From the NCBI GenBank assembly GCA_018830005.1, contig JAHJTE010000001.1, forward strand, positions 577,332-641,331: a stretch of 64,000 nucleotides of DNA. Reading direction: 5' to 3'. This document shows positions 34,699-51,573 of this stretch, one piece after another; the first letter of the stretch is position 1; each line of letters starts with the position of its first letter. The notes under the pieces are model-generated. The model did no database searches. It saw only the letters and a program-made list of their open reading frames with translations, and was not told the DNA's origin. This DNA comes from Candidatus Omnitrophota bacterium (GTDB taxonomy: Bacteria > Omnitrophota > Gorgyraeia > JAHJTE01). Both the position numbers and the translations under genes were made by a program.

Positions 34699-34799
34699 AT
34701 TTTATTCCGGACATTATTTCGGACATTTATCGGCCATTTCGGACAATTGAAAGATGAGCCTAAGGGGACATAAAAGGGACAAATAAGCAGGATCTTATT

Positions 34800-35360
34800 A
34801 TGAACTACTGGTGGACAGCAGATTATCACTTTTCGCATTTCAATATCATTCGCTATTGCGAGCGGCCTTTTAAAACGGCTGAAGAAATGAATAGGGTGAT
34901 TATCCGCAAACATAACGAGAGGGTGAAACCCGAAGATACGGTATTCTTTCTGGGTGATTTTATCTTTAAGGGCGGGAAAGAAGGCGGAGAAGAGAGGTAT
35001 CGTGAGTTTGAGAAGAAACTAAACGGGAAGTTTATTTTCATCAAGGGTAATCACGACCGTAACAACAGCCTTAAGACGATCATTACAAAGATGTATATTC
35101 ACTACGGCTCAAAGGATATCTGCATGACGCACCGTCCGGAGAATGCTGACCCGGACGTGCCGCTTAATTTCTGCGGCCATGTTCATCAGCATTACAAGAT
35201 AAAACGCCTGAATGACAAGTCCTTAATCGTGAACCTTTCGGTTGAGGTTTGGAATTATTATCCGGTCTCATTTAATGAGATAAGCTCCGCTGTTTCAGCG
35301 TTTAAGAGGGAAGAAAGAAAAGCTGAGGTGGTTGAGGCTAATACAGGACATAAAGAATGA
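34800..35360 (+). CDS. calcineurin-like metallophosphoesterase, small
   Basis: WWTADYHFSH, FLGDFIFKGG, GNHDRN and GHVHQ motifs. Confidence 0.65.
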   Translation: MNYWWTADYHFSHFNIIRYCERPFKTAEEMNRVIIRKHNERVKPEDTVFFLGDFIFKGGKEGGEERYREFEKKLNGKFIFIKGNHDRNNSLKTIITKMYIHYGSKDICMTHRPENADPDVPLNFCGHVHQHYKIKRLNDKSLIVNLSVEVWNYYPVSFNEISSAVSAFKREERKAEVVEANTGHKE

Positions 35361-35824
35361 CGAAAAAAACTTTTAGACATTCAGCAGGGTTTGGGAAAAG
35401 GATTGAATATTGGGTTATCGGCCTGATGCTTAAAGAAGGGATTGATGTTTATGTGCCTTTAGTCGATGATGATGCGATCGACGCGGTTATAAAGAAACCT
35501 GATGGAACGTTTATTGAAGTTCAAATAAAGGCAAGGTCTAAAACCGTTAAAATGGGAGATGGAGCTCTATTTGCGGCCATTACACATGAGGCGCGTAAAG
35601 ATTATTACTTTGTGTTTTATTCTGAACGCTTGGATACTTTTTGGATAATGTCATCAGAGGAATTCATTAAGGAATCTGTTCAAAATAAATCAGGCAAAAA
35701 TGCCGGATTAAGATCGATCTGGTTTAATGGTAAACGCAAAAATAAAGAAACAGGCGAGTACAAAGAACATATTCATGAACGTTTCAAAAAATATGTAGTA
35801 AAAGATTTCTCAAGATTTAAATAA
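35357..35824 (+). CDS. PD-(D/E)xK nuclease-fold protein, Hjc/Holliday-junction-resolvase-like
   Basis: GKRIEYWVIGLMLKEGIDVYVPLVDDDAIDAV...FIEVQIKARS follows the E..D-x-D..E-x-K arrangement of Hjc/Mrr-type nucleases. Confidence 0.4.
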   Translation: MTKKTFRHSAGFGKRIEYWVIGLMLKEGIDVYVPLVDDDAIDAVIKKPDGTFIEVQIKARSKTVKMGDGALFAAITHEARKDYYFVFYSERLDTFWIMSSEEFIKESVQNKSGKNAGLRSIWFNGKRKNKETGEYKEHIHERFKKYVVKDFSRFK

Positions 35825-35850: not shown

Positions 35851-37857
35851 ATGACCATAAATTTTAAAGAAAGAGCAAATTTTATCTGGAGTATTGCTGA
35901 TCTTCTGCGAGGTGATTATAAGCAGTCGGAATACGGTCGGGTGATTTTGCCGCTCACGGTCCTGCGTCGCTTGGATTGCGTACTTGAACCAACAAAAGAG
36001 AAGGTTTTGTCGTATCTTCCACAGGTTAAAAGCTTATCCCCGGGAGCTGCTGAAACCGTTCTAAAGAAAAAGGCGAAGTTGTCTTTCTACAATAAGAGCA
36101 AGTTTGATTTTCGAAAGCTAATCGCTGACCCGAATGATATCGCCGCTAATCTCAGAAATTACATCAATGGGTTTTCCAAAAATGCCCGCAGTATCCTAGA
36201 ACACTTCAATTTTGATGACCATATTGAGCGGCTCGATAAATCTAACCTATTGTATATGGTTGTTAAGCGCTTTGCCGATGTGGATTTGCATCCCGAAGCA
36301 GTTGCTAATATTGAAATGGGTTATATTTTTGAGGAGCTTATCCGGAAATTCGCCGATCTTTCCAATGAGACAGCGGGGGAACATTTCACGCCTCGAGAGG
36401 TTATCAGGCTTATGGTTAATATCCTTTTTTTAAATGACAAAGAGATTCTTACAAAGAAAGGTATTGTTAAGACGCTCTTTGATCCTGCCTGCGGAACTGG
36501 CGGCATGCTTTCCGTGGCAGAAGAGTATCTGCGCGAGCTCAATCCAGATGCGGATCTGCGAGTGTTCGGGCAAGAGCTCAATCCTGAATCGTACGCCATT
36601 TGCAACTCTGACATGCTCATCAAGGGACAGAATACGGAGCATATCAAGTTTGGCAATTCCTTCACCCAAGATGGGCTTAAAGACGAAAAATTTGATTATA
36701 TGTTGAGCAATCCTCCTTTTGGCGTGGAGTGGAAGAAAATTAAAGACGAGATCACCAAAGAATATGAACAATTGGGTTTTTCCGGGCGTTTCGGTGCAGG
36801 GCTCCCGCGTATCAGCGACGGTTCATTTCTCTTTCTTCAGCACATGATTTCTAAGATGCGTCCGGAAGATGGCGGCGCACGGCTCGGGATTGTTTTTAAC
36901 GGATCTCCCTTGTTTTCAGGTGGGGCCGGAAGCGGTGAAAGCGAAATCCGCAAATGGATTATCGAGCATGATATGCTTGAGGCAATTATTGCCTTGCCAG
37001 ATCAGCTTTTTTATAACACAGGCATATCGACTTACATATGGATAGTTACCAATCGCAAAGAGAAAGAACGCAAAGGCAAAATTCAGCTTATCAATGCGGT
37101 TGAGTTTTTTGTCAAAATGGCCCGCAGCCTCGGGAATAAACGCAATGAAATTAGCGATGAGCATATCGCTAAAATTACTAAGATTTACGGAGAGTTTAAG
37201 CAGGGAGAATACTGTAAAATATTTCCCAATAAATATTTTGGCTATACGCGCGTAACAGTTGAGAGGCCTTTACGTCTTAATTTCCAGATATCCAAGGAGC
37301 GGATGGATAGGCTTAGCGAGCAGAGTGTTTTTATTAATCTCGCTAAGTCTAAGAAGAAAGGCAAAGCTGGTTTGAAGGAAGCTGAAGAAGGCGAAAAACT
37401 GCAAAAAGAGATTAAAACTATGCTTTCGCAGATGGACGCATCCAAGGTTTACAAGAACAGACAGCAATTTATAGAGGCTATTGAAGAAGCAATTAACAAA
37501 AGGGAACTTAAGGTCAAAGCGCCGGTTATGAAAGCCATCATGGACGCTCTTTGTGAGCGTGATGAAACTGCTGACGTTTGTTTAGATAAAGATGGAAAGC
37601 CAGAGTCTGATACAGAATTGCGCGATTGTGAAAATGTTCCCTTGCTTGAGGATATCGATGCCTATTTCAAGCGTGAAGTCCTACCTCATGTGCCGGATGC
37701 ATGGATGGACAGGAGCAAAGACAAGGTTGGCTATGAGATTAATCTTACCAAAGAGTTTTATAAATACAAACCGTTAAGGTCGCTTGAAGATATTCGCAAA
37801 GATATCCTGGCTTTGGAGAAAGAGACCGAAGGACTGATGGATCAGGTGTTGGAATAA
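35851..37857 (+). CDS. hsdM: type I restriction-modification system, DNA methyltransferase subunit
   Basis: N6-adenine MTase motifs FDPACGTGGML (motif I) and LSNPPFG (motif IV). 668 aa. Confidence 0.9.
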   Translation: MTINFKERANFIWSIADLLRGDYKQSEYGRVILPLTVLRRLDCVLEPTKEKVLSYLPQVKSLSPGAAETVLKKKAKLSFYNKSKFDFRKLIADPNDIAANLRNYINGFSKNARSILEHFNFDDHIERLDKSNLLYMVVKRFADVDLHPEAVANIEMGYIFEELIRKFADLSNETAGEHFTPREVIRLMVNILFLNDKEILTKKGIVKTLFDPACGTGGMLSVAEEYLRELNPDADLRVFGQELNPESYAICNSDMLIKGQNTEHIKFGNSFTQDGLKDEKFDYMLSNPPFGVEWKKIKDEITKEYEQLGFSGRFGAGLPRISDGSFLFLQHMISKMRPEDGGARLGIVFNGSPLFSGGAGSGESEIRKWIIEHDMLEAIIALPDQLFYNTGISTYIWIVTNRKEKERKGKIQLINAVEFFVKMARSLGNKRNEISDEHIAKITKIYGEFKQGEYCKIFPNKYFGYTRVTVERPLRLNFQISKERMDRLSEQSVFINLAKSKKKGKAGLKEAEEGEKLQKEIKTMLSQMDASKVYKNRQQFIEAIEEAINKRELKVKAPVMKAIMDALCERDETADVCLDKDGKPESDTELRDCENVPLLEDIDAYFKREVLPHVPDAWMDRSKDKVGYEINLTKEFYKYKPLRSLEDIRKDILALEKETEGLMDQVLE

Positions 37858-38576
37858 TGTTTATCAGGAGATTTATAAAAAGTACGCCTAGTTTTTATAT
37901 TATGGTGATGATACTCCTTGGCGTTATTTGCTTTATTGTGGCCAAATATGTTCACGGAGATCTTAAGTCAAACTTGATAGCTGAGGTCATAGGAGCAGCT
38001 ATCACGGTTATTATTATCGGTGGCTTATTAAGGATTTGGTATCCCCCACCCACCAAAACGATGTCTAAGTTTTTAATTCCTATGTTGCAGTATTACCTTT
38101 TTGGCTATGTGCGTAGTTTAGGATTTTTATTGCAATATCGCTTTGATAATACAGGGTTCAAAGGCATGAGTCCTATTGATCTTAGCACCTATGGTGTTTT
38201 CTTGGAGAGAAATCTGAACGGATTAAAACAGCATCTCGAACAGAGAAATAATACGAACTATACGCGAGCTGAATTACAACAGATGAAAAGAATGTTTCAG
38301 GCCTTTCATAATGCTATAAACGAATTTGTTATTCGTTACGGGAACCATTTGGACGACGATCTTCTCAATTTGCTCTACCAAATACGGCATATATGCGAGT
38401 ATCAGGTTTTCTATACAGGTGCCTTCTCATTAGAAAATGAATCGCCTGATGAAGTAGTTTGCATGGGGCAAGATATATCGAATGAGCCTATGAAGAATGT
38501 TTTAATATTGATTGAAAAGATAATGACTAAGATTAAAGACGGTACTGTACTCAAAACTGAACCGCTACCCATTTAG
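37857..38576 (+). CDS. hypothetical membrane-anchored protein embedded between hsdM and hsdS
   Basis: ATG overlaps the hsdM stop (TAATG). Two N-terminal TM helices then a 170 aa soluble domain. Stop lies 4 nt before the hsdS start. Confidence 0.5.
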   Translation: MFIRRFIKSTPSFYIMVMILLGVICFIVAKYVHGDLKSNLIAEVIGAAITVIIIGGLLRIWYPPPTKTMSKFLIPMLQYYLFGYVRSLGFLLQYRFDNTGFKGMSPIDLSTYGVFLERNLNGLKQHLEQRNNTNYTRAELQQMKRMFQAFHNAINEFVIRYGNHLDDDLLNLLYQIRHICEYQVFYTGAFSLENESPDEVVCMGQDISNEPMKNVLILIEKIMTKIKDGTVLKTEPLPI

Positions 38577-38580: not shown

Positions 38581-39828
38581 ATGAAAAAATATCCGTCATA
38601 TAAAGATTCGGGAATTGAGTGGATTGGACAAGTGCCAAAGGATTGGCAGGTTAATCGTTTGAAAACGGTTTGCACTTTTACCTATGGAGATTCTTTGACA
38701 AATGAGGATCGAGTTGAAGGCGGTATTCCGGTCTTTGGTTCAAATGGAATTGTCGGCTATCACAACAAAGCGATTACGCATAAGCCATGCATTGTCATTG
38801 GACGCAAAGGTTCATATGGTAAAGTTAATTTTTCACAAGCAGAGTGTTTCCCTATCGATACTACTTACTTTGTTGACGACCGTTCAGCAAAATGTGATTT
38901 GAAATGGCTTAATTATGTTTTGCCGCTTTTAGAGCTCGATAAGTTTTCTAAGGACACTGGGGTTCCGGGGCTTAATCGGGAAGATGCGCATGACAAAAGA
39001 GTGCCAGTGCCTGAAAATAATGTTCAAAAAGTTATTGCTGAATATCTCGACCGCAAGACCGCGCAGATTAATGACCTTATTGCTAAGAAAGAGCGGATGA
39101 TTGAGCTTCTCAAGGAGGAGCGCACAGCGATTATCAATCAGGCGGTTACCAAAGGGCTTGATCCTAACGTGGAGATGAAAGATTCTAACACCGAATGGCT
39201 AGGAGAGATTCCGAAGCATTGGGAGGTGAAAAAACTAAAATATCTTGTTGATAAAGTTCAAACAGGAATAACGCCACCTTCAGAACGTACTGACTATTAT
39301 GATGACGGTGACATTGATTGGTATACGCCAGGCGATTTTCAAGAGTCGATTCGGTTAAAAAATTCTTTTCGAAAAATCAATAGATTAGCTATCGAAGAAG
39401 GAGTTGCGAGAATATTCCCGCCGCTCTCTGTCTTATTAATCGGAATTGGAGCTACGTTGGGTAAAGTCGGTATCATTGAAAAGCTATCAAGTTCTAACCA
39501 GCAGATAAACGCTATAACATTTTCGGATAAATTCAATCCATTTTTTGGTGTTTACTATTTACAGGCAATAGCTGATACAGTCATAAGTCTTTCAAATGCT
39601 TCTACTCTCGCCATTCTGAATCAGACGCAGACGAAAGATATTCTTATGTTGGTGCCACCCTTAGAAGAACAAGGCAAGATTTTTAAATATATTCAATCGG
39701 TTGAGCTTAGACATTCCGAAATTGTTAATAAAGAACAAAAGCAGATAGATTTATTAAAAGAATATCGCACTGCTTTGATTTCCGAGGTAGTAACGGGTAA
39801 AGTAGATGTTCGGGAGTACGCCGCATGA
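38581..39828 (+). CDS. hsdS: type I restriction-modification system, specificity subunit
   Basis: Two target-recognition domains, each preceded by W(I/L)G(Q/E)(V/I)PK(D/H)W(Q/E)V conserved regions. Central and C-terminal coiled coils. Confidence 0.85.
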   Translation: MKKYPSYKDSGIEWIGQVPKDWQVNRLKTVCTFTYGDSLTNEDRVEGGIPVFGSNGIVGYHNKAITHKPCIVIGRKGSYGKVNFSQAECFPIDTTYFVDDRSAKCDLKWLNYVLPLLELDKFSKDTGVPGLNREDAHDKRVPVPENNVQKVIAEYLDRKTAQINDLIAKKERMIELLKEERTAIINQAVTKGLDPNVEMKDSNTEWLGEIPKHWEVKKLKYLVDKVQTGITPPSERTDYYDDGDIDWYTPGDFQESIRLKNSFRKINRLAIEEGVARIFPPLSVLLIGIGATLGKVGIIEKLSSSNQQINAITFSDKFNPFFGVYYLQAIADTVISLSNASTLAILNQTQTKDILMLVPPLEEQGKIFKYIQSVELRHSEIVNKEQKQIDLLKEYRTALISEVVTGKVDVREYAA

Positions 39829-42800
39829 GCTCAATTACAAACGAAAAAGCTTTTGAAGAAACCATTGAACGAAGCCTAATTGATCATGGAAGCTATGTTA
39901 AGGGCGACCCTGATAAATTCAATCGGGATCTTGCAATTGATCAAACAGTCTTGTTTCAGTTTATCAAGGATACTCAGAAGAATGTTTGGGATAGCTTGGC
40001 GGCTATTCATGGCGCTGAAGTAGAAAAGAAGTTTTTATATCGTCTTAATCAGGAATTAGATGCACGTGGAATGCTTGATTGTTTGCGTCATGGTATCATC
40101 GATTACGGTAAGAAGTTTGCCCTCGCCTATTTTAAACCTGTCAGCAAATTAAATCCCGAAACGCAAAAGCTTTATAATCAGAATATCCTCACTGTTACGC
40201 GTCAGGTTCATTACAGCACAAAAGACGAAAGCTCTATTGATATGCTTTTATCTGTAAATGGCCTTCCTGTGGCTACGATTGAGTTAAAAAACCCATTTAC
40301 TGGCCAGGATGTTGATGATGCCAAGCGGCAATACAAATATGACCGCGATGAGCGGGAACTATTGTTTCAGTTTAAGCAGCGCGCCCTTGTCCATTTTGCC
40401 GTGGATACAGATGTTATTTATATGACTACGCGTCTCCAAGGGAGCAAGACAAAATACCTACCTTTTAATAAGGGCTATAACAAAGGTGCCGGAAATCCGC
40501 CAAATCCTAATGGGCATAAGACGGCATATTTATGGGAAGAGGTTTTAGTCAAAGATAGCTGGATGGATATTTTAAGCAGGTTTTTGCATTTAGAAGTAGA
40601 AGAAAAGGCTTTTGAGGGCAGGAAATTCAAAATTGAAACCATGATCTTCCCCCGTTATCACCAGCTTGATAGCGTTCGACAGCTTTCTATGGATGTAATT
40701 ACACAGGGCGCCGGAAAGAATTATTTGATTCAGCATAGCGCAGGAAGCGGCAAGAGTAATTCAATCGCATGGCTTGCCTACCATTTGGCTGGCCTTCACG
40801 ACAAAACCGATAAACGTATATTTGATTCAGTGATTGTGATTACCGACCGTGTTGTTCTTGATAAGCAGTTACAAGATACGATTTATCAATTTGAACATAA
40901 ATCAGGAGTGGTTGAGAAGATTGATAAAGATTCCGCGCAATTAGCCCAGGCGCTTATCAGCGGAACGAACATTATTATTACTACGCTCCAAAAGTTTCCT
41001 TTTGTTTTGGACAAGGTTAGCGATCTTCCCAAGCGCAATTACGCCGTTATTGTTGATGAGGCGCATAGTTCGCAGGGCGGTGAATCCGCTAAGAAAATGA
41101 AAGATGTACTTTCTTCAGTTGATAGAGATGAGATTTCGCTTGATGGGACTGATGAAGAAGATGATATAGAAGATACCATTCGCGAATCTATGCTTAAACG
41201 GGGCCCCAGGCCGAATCTGAGCTTCTTTGGCTTTACGGCAACACCCAAGGCAAAAACACTGGAATTCTTTGGCCAAAAAGGCATAGATGGTAAACCTCAA
41301 CCGTTTCATCTTTATTCCATGCGCCAAGCCATTGAGGAGAGGTTTATCCATGATGTCCTTGAGAATTACACTACCTATCAAACGTTTTTTCAACTATCCA
41401 AGAAGATTGAAGAAGATCCGAACGTAAACAAGAAAAAGGCTGCCCGTGCGATTGCGCGCTTTTTGACACTCCACCCCTATAACCTGGCTCAGAAAACCGA
41501 GGTTATGATTGAGCACTTCCGGCAGGTTACTATGAAAAAGATTGGCGGTAAGGCCAAGGCGATGGTGGTTACAGCTTCGCGCGAGCATGTGGTGCGATAT
41601 AAGCATGAATTTGATAGATACCTGAAAGAGAAAGGATATAGAGATATTAAGGTTCTTGTCGCTTTCTCAGGGGTAGTTCTTTTGGATGGCATACCGCCAG
41701 AATATTCAGAAGAAAGCATGAATAAATATGTCGATAAAGATGGTAAAGAACGGCACATAAAAGAAAAAGAATTGCCGGAGAAATTCTCAACATCAGAATA
41801 CCAGATATTGCTTGTTGCGGAGAAATATCAAACCGGGTACGATGAGCCGCTTTTGCACACTATGTATGTGGACAAGCGCCTTGATGGCGTTAAGGCTGTG
41901 CAGACCATGAGTCGTTTAAATCGAATCTGTCCGGGCAAAGAAGATACTTTCATCTTGGATTTTGTTAATAAGCGAGAGGATATTTTAGCGGCTTTTCAGC
42001 CATATTATGAGCAGACACAATTAAGCGATGTAACCGATCCGAACAAGCTTTATGATCTTAAGGCCAAGCTGGATTCGTTTAAGGTGATATACCAGTCAGA
42101 TGTTGACGCTTTTTGCGCCGTATTCTTCAAAAATAAAGAATTACAGACAAAACGCGAGCATGCTCAATTAAATTCAATAGTAGATGTGGCGGTTGAGCGG
42201 TTTAAGGCAATAGAGAAAGACGAGCATAAAGAGGATTTTATCAATACACTGGGTGTTTTTGTCCGCCTGTATGCGTTTTTGGCGCAGATTATGCCGTTCC
42301 AAGATATTGAGCTTGAGAAATTCTACGCTTATTCTCGTCTTTTACTGAAGAAACTTCCGGGGTCTGACCGGGGTGAAAGATATCACCTCGGTGATGAGGT
42401 CGCGCTTGAGTATTACCGTTTGCAGAAAATAGCTGATGGCAAGATTCAATTGCAAAAGGGTTCAGGTGCGGCTATTGAGCCGATTTCAGAAGCTGGAACG
42501 AGAAAGGATAAAGAAGAATATGCTCACCTATCTGAAATAATCAAACTTCTCAATGAACGGTTTGGAACTGATTTTACCGAAGCCGATAAGCTATTCTTTG
42601 ATCAGATTGAAGAAGAGATGGTTATGGATGAAAAACTTGGCGTCCAAGCCAAGACCAACACGATAGATAATTTCAAATACGGCTTTGAGGATGTGTTTAT
42701 TGCAAAGCTTGTTGACCGGATGGATCAGAATCAGGATATCTTCAATAAGATTATGGATGACAAGGCTTTTGCGGTAGTTGTGAAGGATTATTTATTGAAG

Positions 42801-43340
42801 AAGGTCTATAAGCGATTAAATATTGAAGAAGATGTTGTAAGAGAAGCCGAATCGTTTTTGAGTGATTTGGTTCCCGATGATGAGATAACGCAAGATCAGA
42901 AAAAGTCGCATGTTCGAGTCTGCACTCTTCAAGCCGTAGCAACTTCATTTACTGAACAGCGAACGCCCGAAGTAATTGGCTGGAAACGCTTGGATGGCGT
43001 CTTTAAACTCAATAAAGATATGTTTATCGCTAAAGTCGTTGGCAAGTCGATGGAGCCGACTATTAAAGACGGCAGTTGGTGTTTATTCCGCCCGGATCAG
43101 GGCGGAAGTCGTAACGGTAAGATTGTATTAGTGGAATCGCGGCATATTACTGATCCCGAGACGATGAAAAGTTATACGATTAAGCGTTATTTTAGCGAAA
43201 AAGCGGTAACTGAAGATACGTTTCAACATGTAAAAATCATCTTACGCCCAGATAATAAAGATTTTCAAGATATCGTTTTGGAGAATGTTCAAGAGGGCGA
43301 CTTCCACGTTGTAGCGGAGTTTGTGAAGGTGATTAGTTAA
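39825..43340 (+). CDS. hsdR: type I restriction enzyme R subunit with a fused C-terminal S24 (LexA/UmuD-like) peptidase domain
   Basis: HsdR N-terminal motif TIELKNPFTG, Walker A QHSAGSGKSNS, DEAH box VIVDEAHSS and helicase C motifs. The last ~125 aa read VVGKSMEPTIKDGSWCLF...GKIVLVE...YTIKRY...ILRPDN, like the LexA C-terminal domain. Confidence 0.8.
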   Translation: MSSITNEKAFEETIERSLIDHGSYVKGDPDKFNRDLAIDQTVLFQFIKDTQKNVWDSLAAIHGAEVEKKFLYRLNQELDARGMLDCLRHGIIDYGKKFALAYFKPVSKLNPETQKLYNQNILTVTRQVHYSTKDESSIDMLLSVNGLPVATIELKNPFTGQDVDDAKRQYKYDRDERELLFQFKQRALVHFAVDTDVIYMTTRLQGSKTKYLPFNKGYNKGAGNPPNPNGHKTAYLWEEVLVKDSWMDILSRFLHLEVEEKAFEGRKFKIETMIFPRYHQLDSVRQLSMDVITQGAGKNYLIQHSAGSGKSNSIAWLAYHLAGLHDKTDKRIFDSVIVITDRVVLDKQLQDTIYQFEHKSGVVEKIDKDSAQLAQALISGTNIIITTLQKFPFVLDKVSDLPKRNYAVIVDEAHSSQGGESAKKMKDVLSSVDRDEISLDGTDEEDDIEDTIRESMLKRGPRPNLSFFGFTATPKAKTLEFFGQKGIDGKPQPFHLYSMRQAIEERFIHDVLENYTTYQTFFQLSKKIEEDPNVNKKKAARAIARFLTLHPYNLAQKTEVMIEHFRQVTMKKIGGKAKAMVVTASREHVVRYKHEFDRYLKEKGYRDIKVLVAFSGVVLLDGIPPEYSEESMNKYVDKDGKERHIKEKELPEKFSTSEYQILLVAEKYQTGYDEPLLHTMYVDKRLDGVKAVQTMSRLNRICPGKEDTFILDFVNKREDILAAFQPYYEQTQLSDVTDPNKLYDLKAKLDSFKVIYQSDVDAFCAVFFKNKELQTKREHAQLNSIVDVAVERFKAIEKDEHKEDFINTLGVFVRLYAFLAQIMPFQDIELEKFYAYSRLLLKKLPGSDRGERYHLGDEVALEYYRLQKIADGKIQLQKGSGAAIEPISEAGTRKDKEEYAHLSEIIKLLNERFGTDFTEADKLFFDQIEEEMVMDEKLGVQAKTNTIDNFKYGFEDVFIAKLVDRMDQNQDIFNKIMDDKAFAVVVKDYLLKKVYKRLNIEEDVVREAESFLSDLVPDDEITQDQKKSHVRVCTLQAVATSFTEQRTPEVIGWKRLDGVFKLNKDMFIAKVVGKSMEPTIKDGSWCLFRPDQGGSRNGKIVLVESRHITDPETMKSYTIKRYFSEKAVTEDTFQHVKIILRPDNKDFQDIVLENVQEGDFHVVAEFVKVIS

Positions 43341-43450: not shown

Positions 43451-44713
43451 ATGAATAGTGCAATTGAAACTTTTTATTCAGATTTAAGGCGCTTGAAAGA
43501 AGGAAAGTTGGCCATATTTTTCGGTGCGGGATCGAGTTATGATTATGGAATTCCCACTATGGAAGAAATGGCGAAGATGCTAATTGAAGAATTAAAAAAT
43601 GGTACAAGTAAAATTTTTGATAAAGATACATGCACAGTTTTAAATTCAATTATTGGTTTATCAACTAAAGATAGCGAGGGCGAGAGTAAAAAGCAAAAAA
43701 ATAGTTCACAATGGAATATTGAAGATTTATTGACACGATTACATCGTATTCAAGAAGCTATAGGCGATGAAGGGTCTCCTTTCCCAAAGGTTAATGCTAC
43801 TATTGGTTCATCTGATTTTTCGAAAGATGAGATTAAACATGCTGAGTCAAAATTAGTTGAGTTTATGGTCAAATGCTATCAGCTAGACATCGTTGACAAA
43901 ACCTCACATGGTGTCAAATCGATAGAATATCTGTCTAACTTTTTTGAGTGCTTGGGGGGTTTTTATAATTCAATTTCTGTTTTTACAACTAATAACGATC
44001 TGTGTATTGAGACAGCTCTGCTTCAGCTTTCACAGAGACCTAAAAATACTCAAAAGAAAACTTTTTACTTAATAGATGGATTTTCTCATGGTGCGCTACC
44101 AATATTTTCGATGACTAATTTTTCAATTGTACCTCCCACTCAATCTAATCGTGTAGTTGTATATTTATGGAAATTGCACGGTTCAATAGATTGGACATAT
44201 ACTTGCCCATTAACAGATAATGAGGACGAGAAAACAGAAAATACTAAGTTTCACGACGATTCTATTATTTGTAGATATATCGACCCTGATATGTGGAGAA
44301 AATTTCAAAAAGCCGGAGCTATTTCCAAAGCATCTTCGTTAGATCAATCAAAAATAATGATTTTCCCGACACCATCTAAATATTCTCAGACTTATAACAA
44401 CCCATATATGGATCTATATCAAGCTTTTCGCCGAACACTAGAGACTTGCGAACTTCTACTAGCAGTTGGCACTAGCTTTCCAGATAGTCATATAAATTCA
44501 GCAGTGAAATCGTTTATTAATCGTGATAATACCCAACTTTACGTAGTTGATCCTGAAGTAACATGTGAATCTATTCATAAGCTATTTGGTAAATGTAATT
44601 CCATACAGCCGATCATCAAGTCAGGATTTAAAGATTTTATTCAAGAGGTCCGCAATATCGAATTAATGCGAGAAAAAGAAAGCCCAAAAGAAGGAAGGGA
44701 TAATAATGAGTAA
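43451..44713 (+). CDS. SIR2-family (SIR2_2) NADase-like protein, Sir2-HerA defense component
   Basis: N-terminal KLAIFFGAGSSYDYGIPT (GAGxS) motif of the SIR2_2 family. Overlaps the downstream HerA-like gene. Confidence 0.75.
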   Translation: MNSAIETFYSDLRRLKEGKLAIFFGAGSSYDYGIPTMEEMAKMLIEELKNGTSKIFDKDTCTVLNSIIGLSTKDSEGESKKQKNSSQWNIEDLLTRLHRIQEAIGDEGSPFPKVNATIGSSDFSKDEIKHAESKLVEFMVKCYQLDIVDKTSHGVKSIEYLSNFFECLGGFYNSISVFTTNNDLCIETALLQLSQRPKNTQKKTFYLIDGFSHGALPIFSMTNFSIVPPTQSNRVVVYLWKLHGSIDWTYTCPLTDNEDEKTENTKFHDDSIICRYIDPDMWRKFQKAGAISKASSLDQSKIMIFPTPSKYSQTYNNPYMDLYQAFRRTLETCELLLAVGTSFPDSHINSAVKSFINRDNTQLYVVDPEVTCESIHKLFGKCNSIQPIIKSGFKDFIQEVRNIELMREKESPKEGRDNNE

Positions 44714-46559
44714 ACGTATAGGTGAAATATTAGCTGTAAGCGGTGTAAATGTCACAATAGAAGCAGACCCAAGCTTAAGCGATTTGCATGTTCGGCACGC
44801 TGGAAAAACATATTCTGTTGGGCAACCTGGTTCATATCTTCTTGTTGATCGTGGGCATGATAAACATCTTATTTTAGTAACAACTGTTCGTAAGATGCGT
44901 TGGTCTTCTGCGTCGCAGAATTCTGAAATTTCTTCTTCTGATAATATGCGAGAAGGTCTTCCCAAAGGTAATTTCCCATATTTACCCAAAGCGCCTGAAT
45001 TGATTGATCGGACGCTTATCGATGGACTTCTCGTAGGTTCAATTATCGGGAGGCGATTTGAGATAGGTGTTACACACCTGCCGATAGTGGGGGATAGTGT
45101 TACCCTTGCTCTTCAGGAACATCTTTCAATAGCACTAGCCCCTGATAAAGATCGACACACAGTTTCAATTGGGACCTTTGTTGATTCGAATATCTCTGTC
45201 CATCTAGACTTAGACGATCTTTGTGGTAAACATTCAGCAATTGTAGGCACGACTGGTTGCGGAAAATCTTACACCGTCGCACGCTTATTGCAAGAGCTAG
45301 TATGTAAATATCCCAGTGCAAATATTATTGTGTTTGATCTGCATGGTGAATATCGTAAATGTTTTGAGCATTCAAATTATATACGGGCAGATAAACTTAC
45401 ACTTCCCGCATGGTTGCACTCGTTCGAAAACTTATTTGATCTGTGTGCCGATTTAAGTAATCAGTTTAACATTCATAATCAACGATGGGCTTTTCGAGAC
45501 GGCATATTTCAGCTTAAACAAAGATATTGCAAGGATATTTTAAAGGACGAATCCCTATCAAAGAATATCGATTTAGATTCGCCTATCCCTTTTGATTTTG
45601 AGCATTTAGTTAATTATTTAAAAAACTTGAATAATGAAACCAGAAAATCTGACGATGATAAGCCAGCTTATGCAACTGCTGGCGATCATGATTTATTTAA
45701 GGAACTCATTGAATATTTGCCAAAAAAACGAGGGAGTATAGCCGCTGGCCCTCTAAATGGAGAGTTAGATCGGCAAGTATTAAGAGTCGAGGCGAGATTT
45801 AAGGATCCTAGATATGCTTTTATGTTTCAATATGAAAAACCTAAAGAAGGGGATCTTGAAAGACTAGTGCGACAAGTATCAGGTCTTATACTCGATTCTC
45901 CCTTACCTATCACGGTTTATGACCTTAGTTATCTTCCTTCGGAAACAGTTGGAACAGTTGTAGCTACGATATCGCGTATTATTTTTCAAGTCTATTTTCT
46001 AGCCAAGCGTCGTGAGTTTGTCCCAACGCTTATTGTTTTCGAAGAAGCACATAATTACATATCTCATAGATCTCGCAGTGCTTATGGTGATGCTCGTGAG
46101 GCTGCTGAAAGAATTGCAAAAGAGGGCCGTAAATTTGGAATAGGCATGCTGGCAGTAAGCCAGCGTCCTAGTGAACTTAGTGAGACTTTATTGAGTCAAT
46201 GCAATACATTCTTATGCATGCGGCTTGCTAATTCTGTTGATAAAAATCACATTTTGTCCTTATTGCCTGACTCAATGAGTAATTTAGTAGATATTTTACC
46301 TATTTTGCCACGAGGGCATATTTTAGCAGTTGGGCAAGCTACAAAAATGCCGGTACGGACAATTGTTACTAAAATAGAAAATAAAAATAATGAGCCCGAT
46401 AGTGATGATCCGCCATTTGGAAAAAAATGGAGTGGGGATATTACGAAAAGAAGTATTCCTGATATAGAAAAAATATGCGATATGTGGATAAGGTCAGAAA
46501 AACAAGACACGGATGATATTGCTTCAAAGACAAAAAATTTATCGAGCGAGAAAAAATAA
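44706..46559 (+). CDS. HerA/FtsK-like ATPase (DUF87), Sir2-HerA defense component
   Basis: Walker A AIVGTTGCGKSYTV and Walker B LIVFEEAHNY. 617 aa. Confidence 0.75.
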   Translation: MSKRIGEILAVSGVNVTIEADPSLSDLHVRHAGKTYSVGQPGSYLLVDRGHDKHLILVTTVRKMRWSSASQNSEISSSDNMREGLPKGNFPYLPKAPELIDRTLIDGLLVGSIIGRRFEIGVTHLPIVGDSVTLALQEHLSIALAPDKDRHTVSIGTFVDSNISVHLDLDDLCGKHSAIVGTTGCGKSYTVARLLQELVCKYPSANIIVFDLHGEYRKCFEHSNYIRADKLTLPAWLHSFENLFDLCADLSNQFNIHNQRWAFRDGIFQLKQRYCKDILKDESLSKNIDLDSPIPFDFEHLVNYLKNLNNETRKSDDDKPAYATAGDHDLFKELIEYLPKKRGSIAAGPLNGELDRQVLRVEARFKDPRYAFMFQYEKPKEGDLERLVRQVSGLILDSPLPITVYDLSYLPSETVGTVVATISRIIFQVYFLAKRREFVPTLIVFEEAHNYISHRSRSAYGDAREAAERIAKEGRKFGIGMLAVSQRPSELSETLLSQCNTFLCMRLANSVDKNHILSLLPDSMSNLVDILPILPRGHILAVGQATKMPVRTIVTKIENKNNEPDSDDPPFGKKWSGDITKRSIPDIEKICDMWIRSEKQDTDDIASKTKNLSSEKK

Positions 46560-46641: not shown

Positions 46642-47547
46642 ATGAAAGATAAAATTTTAGAAAACGCAATTGATTTTAACCAGAAAGGAATGAAATATTA
46701 CGTAGGAGAAGATATGAAACATTCTCTGCTAAATGTAGCTGTTGCAGCGGAATTATTAGGGAAAGCTTTTTTGGTAGGTATAAATTCTTGTTTGATCATT
46801 GATAGAGATTTTGATTCTTTTTTACATATATGTGGAGAAGGTAAGCATGCAAAGAAAAGTCCTGCAAGTATTCGAACGATTGGAGCTAAAGAAGTATTTA
46901 GTCGTTGTGCCCAGATTGTTCCCAAGCTAAAAGACTACGACGTAGAAATGAGTTTGTTGGCTGATTTTAGAAGCGGTGTTCTTCATTTGGCAGAACACGA
47001 GAAAGAGTTTACAAAGAAAGTTTTCCTCCCTTATTTAAAGTTTGTAAAGATATTGTTAGAAGCCATGAAATTATCTTTAAGCGACTATTTTGGTGAATTC
47101 GCGCAACTTGTTGAAACTAGTATCAAGGAGGCTACGAAAGAAGTTGACATTAAAGTCGAACGGCTTATTGCTAAGGCGAAGATCAGCTTTAAAGAGAGAT
47201 TTGAGGATGTGGAAGCGCCAGTGAAAAGAAATATAATCAAAAGTATAATCGACAATTATGTTCTATCGCAGTATGAAGAAGAATTAACCGAATGTCCCGC
47301 TTGTGAAAACGATGCAGTTGTGACGGGATCTCATGAGGTCACGGATTGGGATGTTGATTTTGATCGTTACGGGAATCCAGAAGGGGCATATCCAATCGTC
47401 AAATTATATGCGACCTCTTTTAGATGTAATGTTTGTGGTTTAAAACTCAATACTTCCGAAGAATTAGAGTCTGCGGGCATTGATACTATTGTGCGTTTAG
47501 AAAATGTCAACCCAGCAGATTTTTACGATCCCGACAACACTTTCTAA
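46642..47547 (+). CDS. hypothetical protein with a C-terminal CxxC...CxxC zinc ribbon
   Basis: 301 aa. CPACEN ... CNVCG. Confidence 0.45.
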   Translation: MKDKILENAIDFNQKGMKYYVGEDMKHSLLNVAVAAELLGKAFLVGINSCLIIDRDFDSFLHICGEGKHAKKSPASIRTIGAKEVFSRCAQIVPKLKDYDVEMSLLADFRSGVLHLAEHEKEFTKKVFLPYLKFVKILLEAMKLSLSDYFGEFAQLVETSIKEATKEVDIKVERLIAKAKISFKERFEDVEAPVKRNIIKSIIDNYVLSQYEEELTECPACENDAVVTGSHEVTDWDVDFDRYGNPEGAYPIVKLYATSFRCNVCGLKLNTSEELESAGIDTIVRLENVNPADFYDPDNTF

Positions 47548-47602
47548 ATGATTTTCATAGGTAAAATTGTAGAAAAAAATAAAATTTTTCGAATGTCTTC
47601 TG

Positions 47603-48163
47603 ATGAAGGCGTATCGAGAGAATAATTTGCAAAATATGGAGGAAGCTATGAATACAAATTTTGATCAACCCTTCGATTTTAAGGTATCCGATTCATCTGA
47701 AAATTTTGATACTTGGATTAATCGTGAATACATACCTGCTGAATCGAGAACATTGTTACGTAACGCCAACATTCTTTTTGTCCCTCATGAGAATTTTCAC
47801 GAACAGAAAGTTCCTGTGTTTCCTCACAAAACTGAGGAAGTCTTTCATTTTCTTCGAAGGCATGCCCCTAAAGGGATTAATGTCGACATCTGTATTGCAG
47901 ATGATGATTATAAGGAAGTTGTCCTCCATTCTGCTTTAATTATTTTTGGAAGTATAGTTGTATCGGCGATAGCACTTCCTGTTCTTAAGGATTTACTGTC
48001 GGAATATTTGAAACAGAAATTATTTAACAAGTCTAACAGCAATATTAAAGTTTCATTGACCGTTGTTAATACTTCTGGTAAAGGGAAGCAGTTTGATTAT
48101 GAAGGGCCTATTGAAAATTTCGATAAAGTGGTTGCCAAAATCCAACGGGCTGGAGAGAAATAA
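47603..48163 (+). CDS. hypothetical protein (start uncertain: 47603, 47636 or 47648)
   Basis: ORF with one hydrophobic helix (LIIFGSIVVSAIALPVL). Confidence 0.4.
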   Translation: MKAYRENNLQNMEEAMNTNFDQPFDFKVSDSSENFDTWINREYIPAESRTLLRNANILFVPHENFHEQKVPVFPHKTEEVFHFLRRHAPKGINVDICIADDDYKEVVLHSALIIFGSIVVSAIALPVLKDLLSEYLKQKLFNKSNSNIKVSLTVVNTSGKGKQFDYEGPIENFDKVVAKIQRAGEK

Positions 48164-48166
48164 TCT

Positions 48167-49006
48167 ATGGACACTGAAGCAATTAAGCAATTTTTGAATG
48201 ATGTCCATCAGAGACATAAGGATTATGATTATACAAAAGTTAAATCGGTGTTACAGGAATTAAAACGAGGATTCGTTGCTACTAATAAACAGGATGAGGC
48301 CAAAGAAGTATGGTGTTATGAGCAAACAATAAATGCTCAAAAGAATTTTATGGAAGCTTACAAAGCATTAAAACAAGAAAAGTTTTATGAGGCTTGGTGT
48401 ATTTTGGAAAAATGCGAGATTGCCCTTTTGTATTTAAAACCGCATTTTTATCAACGGTTTTCGGAATATTCTTTGGATTTTATCGAAAATCATGCGCGAA
48501 TGTTACAATCATTGTATCCATATAAACTCTTTATAAGTCCAGAGATGCTTATCCATCATTACAAATGCAGTATATGCGATCAAAGAGTCGTTCTTCGGAA
48601 TCCGTGTAGACATGAAGTTGGAGAGATTTATAATGGCGAGATGTGCGTAAGAATCATAGACGGAATTGAGTTTCTAGGCTCAGCTTTTGTAACAAATCCT
48701 GTTCAAAAGTACTCAGTTCCGTTTTTGACCGATCAACAGACAGGTAAGACAGTAGATCCATATAATTATAACCTAGTAAAATTTTTAATTGAGAAGCTGT
48801 CTACACCATTTGATGATTGGAGCTTGAAATGGACGAAAAAGCTTCATCCGCATTCAAAATTTAAACATCTTAGTAGGAATGACAAATGTCCATGCGCTTC
48901 GGGGAAGAAATATAAGCAATGTTGCCTTAATAAAAAAGGAGTGCTAATGGATCATTGTATATTTTCTATTCCTGGAATAGAAGGTTGTGAAGAAAGGATT
49001 CTTTAG
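48167..49006 (+). CDS. hypothetical protein with a C-terminal SEC-C metal-binding motif
   Basis: KCPCASGKKYKQCC near the C-terminus. Confidence 0.5.
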   Translation: MDTEAIKQFLNDVHQRHKDYDYTKVKSVLQELKRGFVATNKQDEAKEVWCYEQTINAQKNFMEAYKALKQEKFYEAWCILEKCEIALLYLKPHFYQRFSEYSLDFIENHARMLQSLYPYKLFISPEMLIHHYKCSICDQRVVLRNPCRHEVGEIYNGEMCVRIIDGIEFLGSAFVTNPVQKYSVPFLTDQQTGKTVDPYNYNLVKFLIEKLSTPFDDWSLKWTKKLHPHSKFKHLSRNDKCPCASGKKYKQCCLNKKGVLMDHCIFSIPGIEGCEERIL

Positions 49007-49147
49007 GAAAATCAATAAAAGGCAATTGTAGAGATTTGCGTTACATCTAAACAGGATAGGTTATAAAAATAAGGGGGTAATTTTAAGCTTTTAGCAACAG
49101 GCGCTTGGTTTCATTTCGGCGTTCTTTCTCGCGGGAGACCAATCTTT

Positions 49148-49888
49148 ATGAGCACAACCTACGACCTCAACAAAATAAAATTCGCTACCGATGAAGCGAC
49201 GTTCAAACGTGCGGTGGGGTTATATGAGGGCGGCAAGGTGACGGAGGTTGAGGAGGCCTTAGGTGATTGGACAGCCATTGTGCTTGGGATTAAGCCGTAC
49301 CGGGTTTCTGTGTCAGGGCGTAATTACAAGCATAGCCATTGCACCTGTTATGTTGGAGAAAAAGGCACGCTTTGTAAGCACATGGTTGCTTTGGCAATCC
49401 ATGCGGTTATGGGAGGGAAGCCATTGGACGATAAGGATAAAGAGCTTTCTTGTGGGATTGAATACAGCGGGCGTCGCGGTGTGCTGAATAAGGAAGAATT
49501 AGAAGCGCTTAAGAAAGCTGTTACTGAATCTATGCGATATATAAAGCCTTACCGGGGGCCCTCACGCACCTGGTTTGCTAATCAGGATTCTTTACGGGAA
49601 GGATGCAACCGGTTGTCAGCCGTTATTTCTAGCCTGCCGGTTAACAAGCAGGTGGTTGATATCTTGGTCAAATTGCTTTTGCGCTTGGAAAGGAAGCTAA
49701 GTGTCGGAGGAGTGGACGATTCAAACGGTATTGTGGGAGGATTAGCCGGTGAATTAGTGGCTCTGCTTGAAGGATTCACAAAAATAGATCCGTCATGTAT
49801 TGATTCCTTTGAACCGCTTTGCGGGAAAGAGTATTGTTTCGGTTGGGAAGATCCACTTGTCCGTATTTTTGACGAGAGAGTTAAATAA
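49148..49888 (+). CDS. SWIM zinc-finger domain protein
   Basis: YKHSHCTCYVGEKGTLCKHMVA (CxCx(n)CxH). Confidence 0.55.
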   Translation: MSTTYDLNKIKFATDEATFKRAVGLYEGGKVTEVEEALGDWTAIVLGIKPYRVSVSGRNYKHSHCTCYVGEKGTLCKHMVALAIHAVMGGKPLDDKDKELSCGIEYSGRRGVLNKEELEALKKAVTESMRYIKPYRGPSRTWFANQDSLREGCNRLSAVISSLPVNKQVVDILVKLLLRLERKLSVGGVDDSNGIVGGLAGELVALLEGFTKIDPSCIDSFEPLCGKEYCFGWEDPLVRIFDERVK

Positions 49889-49894
49889 GAATAA

Positions 49895-51109
49895 TTGAGA
49901 GAAGAGATGGCTGAAGAAGTGATGGGAAAAGATTTAACAGAGAATGTCCAAGAATTGGCCGAGGCGTGGTATAAGGGCGAGTTTGACTTAGGATATTACA
50001 ACTTTTATATCTGCACCGCGACCGAAGGATTGATTCAGAAATGCAAGGACGAGCATAAGATTAAGGTGTCGCGTTCGGATATAGAAGATATGTGCAAGCT
50101 GGACCTGCTTGAGTTCATATTGGATAAAAAAGACGGGAAAAAGATGTTTCCTCAGTTTATAGCTGACAGGGTAGCGTTTATAAAGGAATTACAGGCAAAT
50201 CTTAATTATCCGGTTCCAAGGTTACAGCAGATTATCGCTTATGAGAACGAGTCGCTGCCGTATTCAAACGAGGCATGTGATTTCTATTATGCTGACAGAA
50301 AGAATATTATGACCTGGCTTATTAAGAGGCTTAAATTTGAGATAAATGGCAGGAAAGAGTACTTGAAGGCGCTTGATGCGATTAATAAAAAATACGCTGA
50401 TGATGTAAAAAAGAAAAGAATAAAAAGAGTGATTGCTGATTTGGTTAAAAATGCAGAGGCAAGTATTGTCACCATTGAAGAGGTTGTCACCGAGTTAGCA
50501 AAGTGGAAATGGAAGGGCTTATCCAAACAGCAGAAGGATGAAGTGGTAAAAGTTGTTTTTGAACAACAGCTTTACGATGAGCGTGAGCGCATATCTGATA
50601 TGAAGCACTATTATAATAAGATATTATCGGGATACAGCCCTCAAGTTGAGTTTAAAAAGCCTGAGACAGCAAAGGAGCGGTTGGATTTTAGGCAAATTAA
50701 CTGGGAGGAAACAATCGAGTCCGTTAAGATGTACTCGCAGTTTATCGATTTTTTCGCGACTCCGTATTTCTCTGTGGAAATTGATAGGAAAGCAATCACT
50801 ATAAAGATAACAAATCCTAAGGAAGTGAGCACTCCCTTAAAAGGCGCGATAGATAAAATTTACACTATTTTTAAAAGCCGTTTTGGATACAGGCGAAAAG
50901 GATGGGGAGAGCGTTCAGGGAAAAAGCAACTTATGGAGCAGCGCAACGAGAAGCTGAGAAAGCTTTACTCAATGATGCGCAAAGAGAAACCAAATGTAGC
51001 CAGCGGGATTTTGATTGACCGGCTTATCGAAGAAACAAAAAAGACGGAGATCCCAGTTTTGACCACCGAAAGGATAAAGAGAATTATTTATACAAAGAAT
51101 ATGTCGTAA
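49895..51109 (+). CDS. hypothetical protein
   Basis: 404 aa ORF with coding-like composition and no recognisable motif. Confidence 0.45.
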   Translation: MREEMAEEVMGKDLTENVQELAEAWYKGEFDLGYYNFYICTATEGLIQKCKDEHKIKVSRSDIEDMCKLDLLEFILDKKDGKKMFPQFIADRVAFIKELQANLNYPVPRLQQIIAYENESLPYSNEACDFYYADRKNIMTWLIKRLKFEINGRKEYLKALDAINKKYADDVKKKRIKRVIADLVKNAEASIVTIEEVVTELAKWKWKGLSKQQKDEVVKVVFEQQLYDERERISDMKHYYNKILSGYSPQVEFKKPETAKERLDFRQINWEETIESVKMYSQFIDFFATPYFSVEIDRKAITIKITNPKEVSTPLKGAIDKIYTIFKSRFGYRRKGWGERSGKKQLMEQRNEKLRKLYSMMRKEKPNVASGILIDRLIEETKKTEIPVLTTERIKRIIYTKNMS

Positions 51110-51162
51110 ACTCTCGCGCTTATTCTCGCATATGCGTGTAAATTTATTATAGTTTACGACAT
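51101..51162. repeat. 14-bp inverted repeat (AATATGTCGTAAACT / AGTTTACGACATAT) with a 38-nt spacer
   Basis: Perfect 12-bp arms at 51101-51112 and 51151-51162, overlapping the stop codon of the upstream gene. Possible element boundary or recombination site. Confidence 0.4.
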
Positions 51163-51190
51163 ATCCAGAGAAGCTTTTTTAGGGTATAGT

Positions 51191-51228
51191 CCCTGTAGGA
51201 ATAAAAACCTGCAGGGATTTTTTATTTT
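51191..51228 (+). terminator. rho-independent terminator
   Basis: CCCTGTAGG-aataaaaa-CCTGCAGGG hairpin followed by ATTTTTTATTTT. Confidence 0.6.
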
Positions 51229-51255
51229 ATGGCAACGACAAAAGGCGAGATAAAA

Positions 51256-51573
51256 ATGAGAAGAGTAAAAGTTGATGAAGTGGTTTTCTACCCCATACGT
51301 CCTACCGAAAAAGGTTTAATCGGTTTTGCCTCCTGCTTATTCGATAGACGCCTTTCCTTGAGCAGTATTGCCATATATACACGGCCTGACGGAAAAGATT
51401 ACAGGCTTCTTTTTCCCTCAAAGCGGCTCCCGAACAATAAGGAAATAAATATATTTTATCCCGTGAATAGCGAGACTTACGAGCTGATAAAAGACGCGAT
51501 CGTGAAAAAAATAGAAGAATTAACCGAAAAGGTGAAAGAAAGAGGTGGATATGAAGAATATGGAAAATTATGA
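51256..51573 (+). CDS. SpoVG-family nucleic-acid-binding protein homolog
   Basis: MRRVKVDEVVFYPI..GLIGFASCLFD..LLFPSKRLPNNKEINIFYPVNSETYELIKDAI aligns with the SpoVG fold. Alternative start at 51229. Confidence 0.5.
   Translation: MRRVKVDEVVFYPIRPTEKGLIGFASCLFDRRLSLSSIAIYTRPDGKDYRLLFPSKRLPNNKEINIFYPVNSETYELIKDAIVKKIEELTEKVKERGGYEEYGKL

Follow-up and report, generated by a model that had tools for sequence, protein, structure and literature searches.

To our knowledge, how restriction enzymes and other DNA-cutting defence enzymes spare the host after DNA damage or new acquisition is understood for only a few E. coli Type I systems, and we know of no such control for Type ISP, IIG or IV enzymes or for helicase-nucleases. 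The default trigger of the S24 protease family is RecA assembled on single-stranded DNA (ssDNA; the RecA-ssDNA filament, hereafter the RecA filament), on which all characterised S24 autopeptidases that we know of depend, save IrvR. Type I enzymes need restriction alleviation under DNA-damage stress, which in EcoKI takes the form of ClpXP proteolysis of HsdR (PMC4231737, PMC11109961), with the degron in EcoKI HsdR still unidentified (PMC4231737). Autocleavage of LexA and of IrvR exposes a ClpXP C-degron directly beside the cut (PMC5742171); for LexA, a degron adjoining the cleavage site is credited by PMC3159453 to Neher 2003. Here, we analyse a 64,000-nucleotide (nt) stretch of a Candidatus Omnitrophota bacterium (contig JAHJTE010000001.1, positions 577,332 to 641,331 of the forward strand; hereafter the window), in which hsdR, the restriction subunit gene of a Type I operon, ends in a LexA/UmuD-type S24 domain.

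The hsdR open reading frame (ORF) runs uninterrupted over 1171 amino acids (aa) at 39825..43340 on the + strand and is the last gene of the operon; both the frame and the sequence quoted in an earlier, sequence-only reading of the window were confirmed. The protein is laid out as follows.

39825..42824, + strand: HsdR body, aa 1-1000, with PD-(D/E)XK nuclease, superfamily 2 (SF2) motor and helical C-terminal region (Pfam, PADLOC, PDB)
42825..42908, + strand: variable linker, aa 1001-1028, of varying length in fused homologs
42909..42956, + strand: cleavage-site strand, aa 1029-1044 (HVRVCTLQAVATSFTE), aligned to LexA L76-E86
nt 42939-42944, + strand: predicted scissile bond Ala1039-Thr1040, aligned to LexA A84-G85
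42957..43340, + strand: S24 catalytic core, aa 1045-1171, and stop codon (Pfam PF00717, AlphaFold2, Foldseek, catalytic dyad)
nt 43047-43049, + strand: Ser1075 in GKSM (VVGK-S-MEP), equivalent to LexA S119
nt 43182-43184, + strand: Lys1120 in TIKRY (YTI-K-RY), equivalent to LexA K156

The body contains the Pfam domains HSDR_N (aa 117-206), SWI2_SNF2 (aa 279-515, the SF2 motor, SWI2_SNF2/ResIII) and a T1R_D3-like domain (aa 577-713), matches the PADLOC model REase_I (E = 1.6e-37) and has EcoR124I HsdR as its closest solved relative in the PDB (2w00; E = 5e-16, the match covering the nuclease and the first of the motor domains). The combination of nuclease, SF2 translocase and helical C-terminal region is that of a Type I R subunit; because the protein scores 206.7 against NCBIfam TIGR00348, below the cutoff of 284.55, it represents a divergent subfamily. 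Among 40 fused homologs, mean pairwise identity was 80% in the body, 33% in the linker, 63% in the strand at aa 1029-1044 and 65% in the S24 core.

Profile, LexA-type beta fold and Ser-Lys dyad all assign the tail to S24. The Pfam family PF00717 (Peptidase_S24) matches aa 1059-1165 above its gathering cutoff of 23.3 bits, scoring 36.1 bits when the full protein is scanned (E = 6e-9) and 41.2 bits when only the tail is (E = 1.5e-10), and the NCBIfam lexA and UmuD models give weak, sub-threshold matches over the same stretch. An AlphaFold2 (AF2) model of aa 1021-1171, computed from a 50-sequence alignment of the module drawn from many contexts, reached a predicted local distance difference test (pLDDT) score of 92.4 and a predicted template modelling (pTM) score of 0.86, and when this model was compared with the PDB by Foldseek, the top 38 matches were all LexA C-terminal domain (CTD), lambda cI CTD or UmuD' (probability 1.00; template modelling (TM) score on the target up to 0.75). 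Sequence identity between the tail and LexA is ~20-26%; a single-sequence phmmer search of the tail against PDB sequences gave chance matches only, and with the module profile LexA was the sole match. Alignment to E. coli LexA (S119/K156, A84-G85) and UmuD (S60/K97, C24-G25) places Ser1075 and Lys1120 at the catalytic dyad, positions that are invariant in 45 fused HsdR homologs; among 150 homologs of the module, the serine is kept in all 150 and the lysine in 149. On profile, modelled fold and dyad together, we regard it as confirmed that the tail of ~143 residues (aa ~1029-1171) is a genuine LexA/UmuD-type S24 autopeptidase domain, as the sequence-only reading had proposed, including its choice of the GKSM serine and the TIKRY lysine. 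That reading had confined the domain to nt 42950-43340, the last ~125 residues; the core does lie there, but the module is larger, with the linker beginning at aa 1001 (nt 42825), and the account of the core motifs, itself correct, had passed over the LexA-like cleavage-site strand at aa 1029-1044 (nt 42909-42956).

Two other identities were considered and rejected. For an S26 signal peptidase, there were only weak sub-threshold NCBIfam matches, the context is cytoplasmic and C-terminal, and SpsB and LepB reached Foldseek TM scores of 0.14-0.22 on the target, below every S24 match. The protein is not a repressor of the LexA/cI type either, because it has no helix-turn-helix (HTH) domain, its N-terminal 1000 aa being HSDR_N, SF2 motor and T1R_D3.

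The strand preceding the core (LP.Y.L.AAAG.FG....E..GW as consensus) corresponds to the cleavage strand of LexA, LPLVGRVAAGEP, so that, by alignment, the tail carries its own conserved substrate strand. Among the 150 module homologs, the P1-P1' pair is Ala-Gly in 94, Ala-Thr in 17, Cys-Gly in 16 and Ala-Ser in 6. Counted singly, the P1 position holds Ala 119 times and Cys 16 times, exactly the P1 residues of LexA and UmuD, and the P1' position holds Gly 115 times, Thr 17 times and Ser 7 times. The window HsdR reads LQAVA/TSF, with Ala-Thr in place of the canonical Ala-Gly; this pair occurs in nearly all close HsdR relatives of the window protein and in a minority of the wider module, where tails with Ala-Thr occur intermingled with Ala-Gly and Ala-Ser ones on related bodies. 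Because of the Ala-Thr pair, cleavage competence is less certain for the window HsdR than for the wider family. An aromatic residue at P3' (F1042) and Trp1053 are near-invariant in the module. Compared with LexA and UmuD, the module has two specific insertions, R..I.DPETGG before and SEK....D.W.H after the strand bearing the catalytic lysine, located in HsdR at aa 1104-1116 and 1124-1133 (nt ~43134-43223), which could form a ligand- or partner-binding surface.

When 5.8 billion proteins were searched with the whole protein, ~50 of the best 120 homolog clusters shared the HSDR_N...Peptidase_S24 architecture (1140-1180 aa, 64-94% identical). Their sources are assemblies independent of each other (JGI, ENA, Logan and NCBI), for the most part metagenome-assembled genomes (MAGs) of Candidatus Omnitrophota, Elusimicrobiota and Desulfobulbaceae. 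The other ~70 clusters are tail-less, ~1000 aa long and at most 88% identical over the body; they stop at query aa 1000-1004 (...KKVYKRLN), and fused and tail-less operons have an identical layout. As judged by this comparison, and by a linker that is hypervariable next to a conserved tail, the tail looks like a regulatory appendage and not part of the core enzyme. Because the tail-less homologs end at aa ~1000, an HsdR cut at the predicted site would still be complete; therefore, removal of the tail would not by itself inactivate the enzyme, and a further step, either an exposed C-terminal degron or the loss of tail-mediated dimerisation, has to be assumed. The idea in the sequence-only reading of an HsdR that switches itself off by self-cutting thus survives in that the in-frame fusion is real, and fails in taking the cut alone as inactivation. 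A full-length AF2 model based on 49 HsdR homologs (pLDDT 51, pTM 0.30) was unusable for docking the tail on the body.

The same reading had treated the fusion as a feature of HsdR, to which it is not peculiar. When the tail was searched exhaustively by phmmer against 1.84 billion representatives (50% identity clusters), there were 1523 matches at E ≤ 1e-3, of which 832 reached E ≤ 1e-10 and 30 reached E ≤ 1e-30; in 137 of the 150 best matches, from proteins of 109-1490 aa, the module ends at most 15 residues from the C-terminus. Partner domains were counted in 76 matches of at least 280 aa, and 44 shorter members were scanned as well; PF00717 matched all 76 and all 44. The Pfam partners among the 76 were ResIII (15), Schlafen-group-3 helicase (SLFN-g3; 14), Type_ISP_C (11), Eco57I (6), Helicase_C (6), SWI2_SNF2 (5), MrfA-Zn (4), N6_Mtase (4), nSTAND3 (4), HNH (3), and AlwI, RE_endonuc, MmeI_Mtase, PLD and GIY-YIG (2 each). 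By PADLOC, the same 76 comprised Type IIG (11), Type I restriction-modification (R-M; 9), AbiO (9), Nhi (8), Type IV (5), PbeA (5) and DruE (4); the PDC-S41 matches in this census come from the bodies, because the tail alone has no PADLOC model. Architectures were confirmed in ten proteins, including Type ISP, RE_endonuc, AlwI, HIT-SF2-HNH-repeat, MmeI-type and GIY-YIG-Schlafen helicase arrangements. Only 5 of the 44 shorter members carry an XRE HTH domain, the others being fragments in which DpnI_C, DUF3427, Schlafen helicase or T1RH-like_C domains are found, the last of these from a different HsdR family.

The 55 proteins with a body of at least 200 aa fall into at least 21 unrelated body clusters, and in 30 of these 55 the nearest relative of the tail sits on a non-homologous body. 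Among these proteins, the window tail is closest to the tail of a Type ISP enzyme (63% identity) and shares 61% identity with an AlwI-type tail. A search for related loci with the single window tail as query, which reaches close relatives only, showed tails 62-64% identical to it on Schlafen-type helicases in Bacillota MAGs. Judged by these distributions, the module is a distinct, portable S24 sub-family, repeatedly added at the extreme C-terminus of DNA-targeting defence enzymes and shuffled among Type I, ISP, IIG, IIS, IIM and IV restriction enzymes, Schlafen/DUF2075 helicases, SF2 helicase-nucleases and STAND NTPases. Because the module is not peculiar to HsdR, any explanation of it must be general.

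Searched against phage genomes, the tail had no match, and against plasmids it matched one record, a Halomonas chromid. This is the sole match from a cultivated organism (Halomonas sp. PA16-9, NZ_CP040452.1; 5977-8447 of the locus L005), where a Schlafen/DUF2075 helicase (686 aa) and an S24 module (159 aa, IAAG site) occupy two overlapping frames in a stretch that is unannotated in PLSDB, with an AbiEi/AbiEii-like pair a short way downstream. A frameshift, a pseudogene or a sequencing error might account for the two frames, or the gene might genuinely be split.

We consider it most likely that the HsdR tail is a self-cleaving regulatory tail. In the resting enzyme, the tail would be latent and the R2M2S complex would restrict normally. 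The RecA filament, arising from UV or replication damage or from the enzyme's own breaks in unmodified host DNA, would stabilise the cleavable conformation, as it does for LexA, and Ser1075/Lys1120 would cut the Ala1039-Thr1040 bond, releasing a tail of ~15 kDa and leaving an HsdR that ends in ...LQAVA-COOH (...AAA-COOH in most family members). The Ala-rich new end might then act like the latent ClpXP C-degron of LexA and IrvR, the effector would be degraded, and restriction would be transiently shut off, which would amount to a cis-encoded fuse for restriction alleviation or against autoimmunity. Cleavage itself, the RecA filament as trigger, the degron at the new C-terminus and down-regulation as the outcome are all steps that we infer. 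The off-switch is favoured because the enzymes bearing the module are for the most part nucleases that are constitutively active, discriminate by methylation and put the host chromosome at risk. The RecA-F203 pocket of LexA is lined by V79, V82, F111, L113, V146 and V153 (bioRxiv 10.1101/2023.10.30.564768), and these six positions align with conserved hydrophobic positions of the module (Y/V/F, A/V, F, A/V, L and Y/F, respectively), which is compatible with sensing of the RecA filament and is not proof of it; in the window HsdR, the pocket would be formed by C1033, A1037, F1067, A1069, L1102 and Y1117.

Several points weigh against this interpretation. LexA, cI and UmuD show little conservation in the surfaces that contact RecA, and RecA dependence is not readable from sequence; the two conserved insertions that LexA lacks could bind a different ligand. 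In the AF2 model, aa 1035-1044 form a helix and not a strand docked in the active site, and the scissile bond of the window HsdR is Ala-Thr, not Ala-Gly; in LexA, going by the title of PDB entry 1jhf, the G85D change blocks cleavage. The LexA-like IrvR cleaves without RecA (PMC7101444). The Ala-rich new C-terminus is no independent evidence of a degron, because small residues at P2 and P1 are needed for cleavage anyway. Finally, the STAND NTPases and HNH/PLD proteins without methyltransferases would be better accommodated by a switch that turns the effector on.

Such an activating switch, in which the tail would keep the effector inactive or sequestered (through dimerisation or an occluded surface) until infection-induced cleavage, triggered by RecA filaments on phage ssDNA or replication intermediates, frees the active nuclease or translocase, is nevertheless unlikely. 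It accords with the fact that the cut would yield exactly the tail-less form, which is natural and presumably active, and switching on by infection would be expected of the nSTAND NTPases and the HNH, PLD and GIY-YIG-Schlafen helicase partners, which have no cognate methyltransferase. However, the module sits mainly on classical R-M enzymes (Type I, ISP, IIG), which bring methyltransferase and specificity functions of their own, and because R-M enzymes must act on incoming DNA before replication or RecA loading, an on-switch gated by the RecA filament would delay restriction; the full-length AF2 model is too poor to show an autoinhibitory contact.

We consider it rather improbable that self-cleavage is independent of RecA, either as a constitutive or slow process of maturation or a turnover timer, or in response to another trigger, such as pH, a nucleotide or a phage or anti-restriction protein, that the conserved inserts would sense. 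The absence of these inserts (DPETGG, and W.H after the lysine strand) from LexA and UmuD would fit this explanation, as would the documented autocleavage of IrvR without RecA (PMC7101444), and, speculatively, F1042 at P3' and Trp1053 might self-populate the allosteric pocket, as the Q92W change does in hyper-cleavable LexA (bioRxiv 10.1101/2023.10.30.564768). Set against it are the conserved hydrophobic pocket positions, the failure of any partner gene to co-occur with the tail in the operons compared and, as far as we know, the use of the RecA filament by every characterised S24 autopeptidase except IrvR.

Quite improbable, in our assessment, is a role in the window HsdR without any cleavage, as a dimerisation domain or a domain binding the RecA filament, with the strand as a permanent pseudo-substrate; the tail might, for example, tether two HsdR motors or steer the enzyme relative to RecA-coated DNA. 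The replacement of Ala-Gly by Ala-Thr in the window HsdR and nearly all of its close relatives would be explained in this way, the CTDs of LexA and cI are dimerisation domains, and Type I, ISP and IIG enzymes require the cooperation of two enzyme molecules for cleavage. However, Ser1075 and Lys1120 are invariant throughout the Ala-Thr clade, a constancy that a purely structural domain would not be expected to show, P1' is small in every case (T, S or G), and the Ala-Thr tails occur among Ala-Gly and Ala-Ser ones.

An artefactual fusion, namely a frameshift, mis-assembly or read-through joining hsdR to a separate S24 gene, which the sequence-only reading had kept in view, is hardly credible and is excluded by recurrence of the same architecture in ~50 of the 120 clusters (90% identity) from independent metagenomes, along with the uninterrupted frame, GC content that is continuous across the body/tail junction, and a tail that is conserved in frame and has no start codon or ribosome-binding-site context of its own; nothing was found here in its favour, the Halomonas locus, with helicase and module in two overlapping frames, being one distant case of separate reading frames.

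Returning to the off-switch, the whole chain from RecA filament through self-cleavage and degron to a fuse that shuts restriction off is offered tentatively, as a proposal that falls a little short of being probable. Its generalisation, by which the module would be a cis-encoded fuse wiring many effectors to the RecA filament as a guard against autoimmunity, across Type I, ISP, IIG, IIS, IIM and IV enzymes and Schlafen-type helicases, whenever an effector attacks its own chromosome or unmodified sites arise through damage repair, is possible and somewhat more doubtful.

The hsdM and hsdS genes lie directly 5' of hsdR on the same strand, as in its relatives, the layout of which is identical, and hsdS overlaps hsdR by 4 nt. 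The other genes of the operon, and the small ORFs adjacent to hsdS in related loci, are listed here.

35851..37857, + strand: hsdM, Type I methyltransferase subunit, 668 aa (Pfam N6_Mtase, E = 5e-63; HsdM_N, E = 4e-30)
37857..38576, + strand: 239-aa ORF between hsdM and hsdS, with 2 predicted N-terminal transmembrane segments (hydrophobic aa ~10-30 and 38-60)
38581..39828, + strand: hsdS, specificity subunit, 415 aa (Pfam Methylase_S in two stretches, E = 3.5e-35)
L001 6336-6974, L002 6605-7396 and L003 6970-7605: hsdS-adjacent small ORFs of related loci, counterparts in position of window 37857-38576 (+)

The 239-aa ORF has no match in Pfam or PADLOC. A small ORF beside hsdS is always present in the operons of this HsdR family (211-263 aa, no Pfam match), and the ORFs that occupy the slot between hsdM and hsdS in related operons have no homology to each other. 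Because non-homologous slot ORFs occur in fused and tail-less loci alike, the slot ORF is not a tail-specific partner, and no tail-specific partner gene was found among the fused and tail-less operons compared. Related operons contain a DUF3800 gene and another ORF of unknown function before hsdR, both of which are missing from the window operon. On the minus strand, a single ORF of 65 aa, considered spurious, overlaps the hsdR region, and a scan downstream of hsdR found no terminator-like site. In an Omnitrophota-type contig (L001, 4334-13462), the whole Type I operon, with an S24-tailed hsdR, is located inside the dcw/mur cell-wall cluster, between murE-like and murF-like ligase genes; this position indicates that the Type I cassette is mobile.

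Directly 3' of the window hsdR, at 43451-46559 (+), a gene for a SIR2_2 protein (420 aa) is followed by an overlapping gene for a HerA/DUF87 ATPase (617 aa), and the PADLOC matches (HerA, E = 9e-126; SIR2, E = 9e-29) identify them as a SIR2-HerA defence pair. A SIR2_2 gene is also found 3' of the tail-less hsdR in the related loci L003 and L004. On the 5' side of the R-M operon (32530-35824, +), an AbiEi_2-like regulator overlaps an NTP_transf_8 nucleotidyltransferase, forming an AbiE-like toxin-antitoxin pair, and two calcineurin-like phosphoesterases are encoded there as well, along with a PD-(D/E)XK protein of small size. Taken with the R-M operon and the SIR2-HerA pair, these genes look like a defence island. 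Beyond SIR2-HerA, the stretch 46642-54157 (+) encodes a 301-aa ORF with a weak match to PADLOC PDC-S64, SEC-C-motif and SWIM zinc-finger proteins, two ORFs without matches and an unusually long DnaG-type primase of 870 aa, with Zn-ribbon and Toprim in its first ~330 aa and a C-terminal portion of ~540 aa without assignment. Coding-strand bias is unusually strong, all 52 ORFs of at least 150 aa in the window being on the + strand, and no tRNA genes are present in the 64 kb.

In the literature searched, fusion of an S24 domain to a restriction or defence enzyme was nowhere described, in line with the sequence-only reading, which was aware of no such description; most subscription journals lay outside the search, and a prior description is possible. 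One mention of 'S24' in a paper on His-Me finger proteins concerns neighbouring signal peptidases and not a fused S24 domain. The fusion is visible in precomputed Pfam annotations, and the source databases name the proteins 'type I restriction enzyme R subunit' or 'DEAD/DEAH box helicase'. New here are the portability of the module beyond HsdR and the substrate strand that the module carries with it. The analysis suggests that the tail is an uncharacterised built-in switch that may link restriction to a DNA-damage signal, and a conserved, shuffled LexA-type tail borne by all these enzyme classes suggests a single device of post-translational control common to them. If this is true, the SOS signal would extend from transcription (LexA, cI) and mutagenesis (UmuD) to the direct control of immune effectors, and the module could serve in engineering as a compact damage-inducible degradation tag.

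Among known systems, the LexA CTD (MEROPS S24; PDB 1jhe, 1jhf, 3jsp, 8trg) shares with the tail the fold, the Ser-Lys dyad, the N-terminal substrate strand and Ala at P1, and the positions of the RecA-F203 pocket are hydrophobic in both. The tail differs from LexA in its partner, a 1000-aa restriction subunit instead of a DNA-binding domain, in Thr in place of Gly at P1', in the two conserved insertions around the lysine strand and in most of its sequence; a response of the tail to the RecA filament is putative. UmuD/UmuD' (PDB 1umu, 8gmt) is likewise a non-repressor, the activity of which is changed by removal of one piece through self-cleavage, and its Cys-Gly site recurs in 16 of the 150 module homologs. 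However, self-cleavage strips UmuD of a 24-aa N-terminal arm and leaves the catalytic domain as the functional product, whereas in HsdR the catalytic domain would be discarded, the N-terminal enzyme being the cargo.

The alleviation of EcoKI by ClpXP shares its purpose with the proposed fuse, in that HsdR is shut down by proteolysis when host DNA becomes a target (PMC4231737, PMC11109961). EcoKI HsdR has no protease domain, and it is recognised in trans, in dependence on long-lived translocation; unlike this, the proposed cut by the S24 tail would occur in cis and would answer a diffusible damage signal. The HsdR of EcoR124I (Type IC; PDB 2w00), the closest solved relative of the body and of similar length (1038 versus ~1000 aa), has no S24 tail, and its alleviation is independent of ClpXP and involves no proteolysis (PMC4231737).

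The HTH-S24 repressors lambda cI, SetR and IrvR show the same order of cargo domain, linker with cleavage site and S24 core, and in IrvR, as in LexA, cleavage exposes a C-degron on the cargo (PMC5742171). The XRE HTH domains in the 5 of 44 short members mentioned above resemble this arrangement. However, cleavage of the HTH-S24 repressors results in transcriptional derepression, whereas in HsdR the cargo is an enzyme, and the control exerted by the tail would be post-translational and would act on the effector itself.

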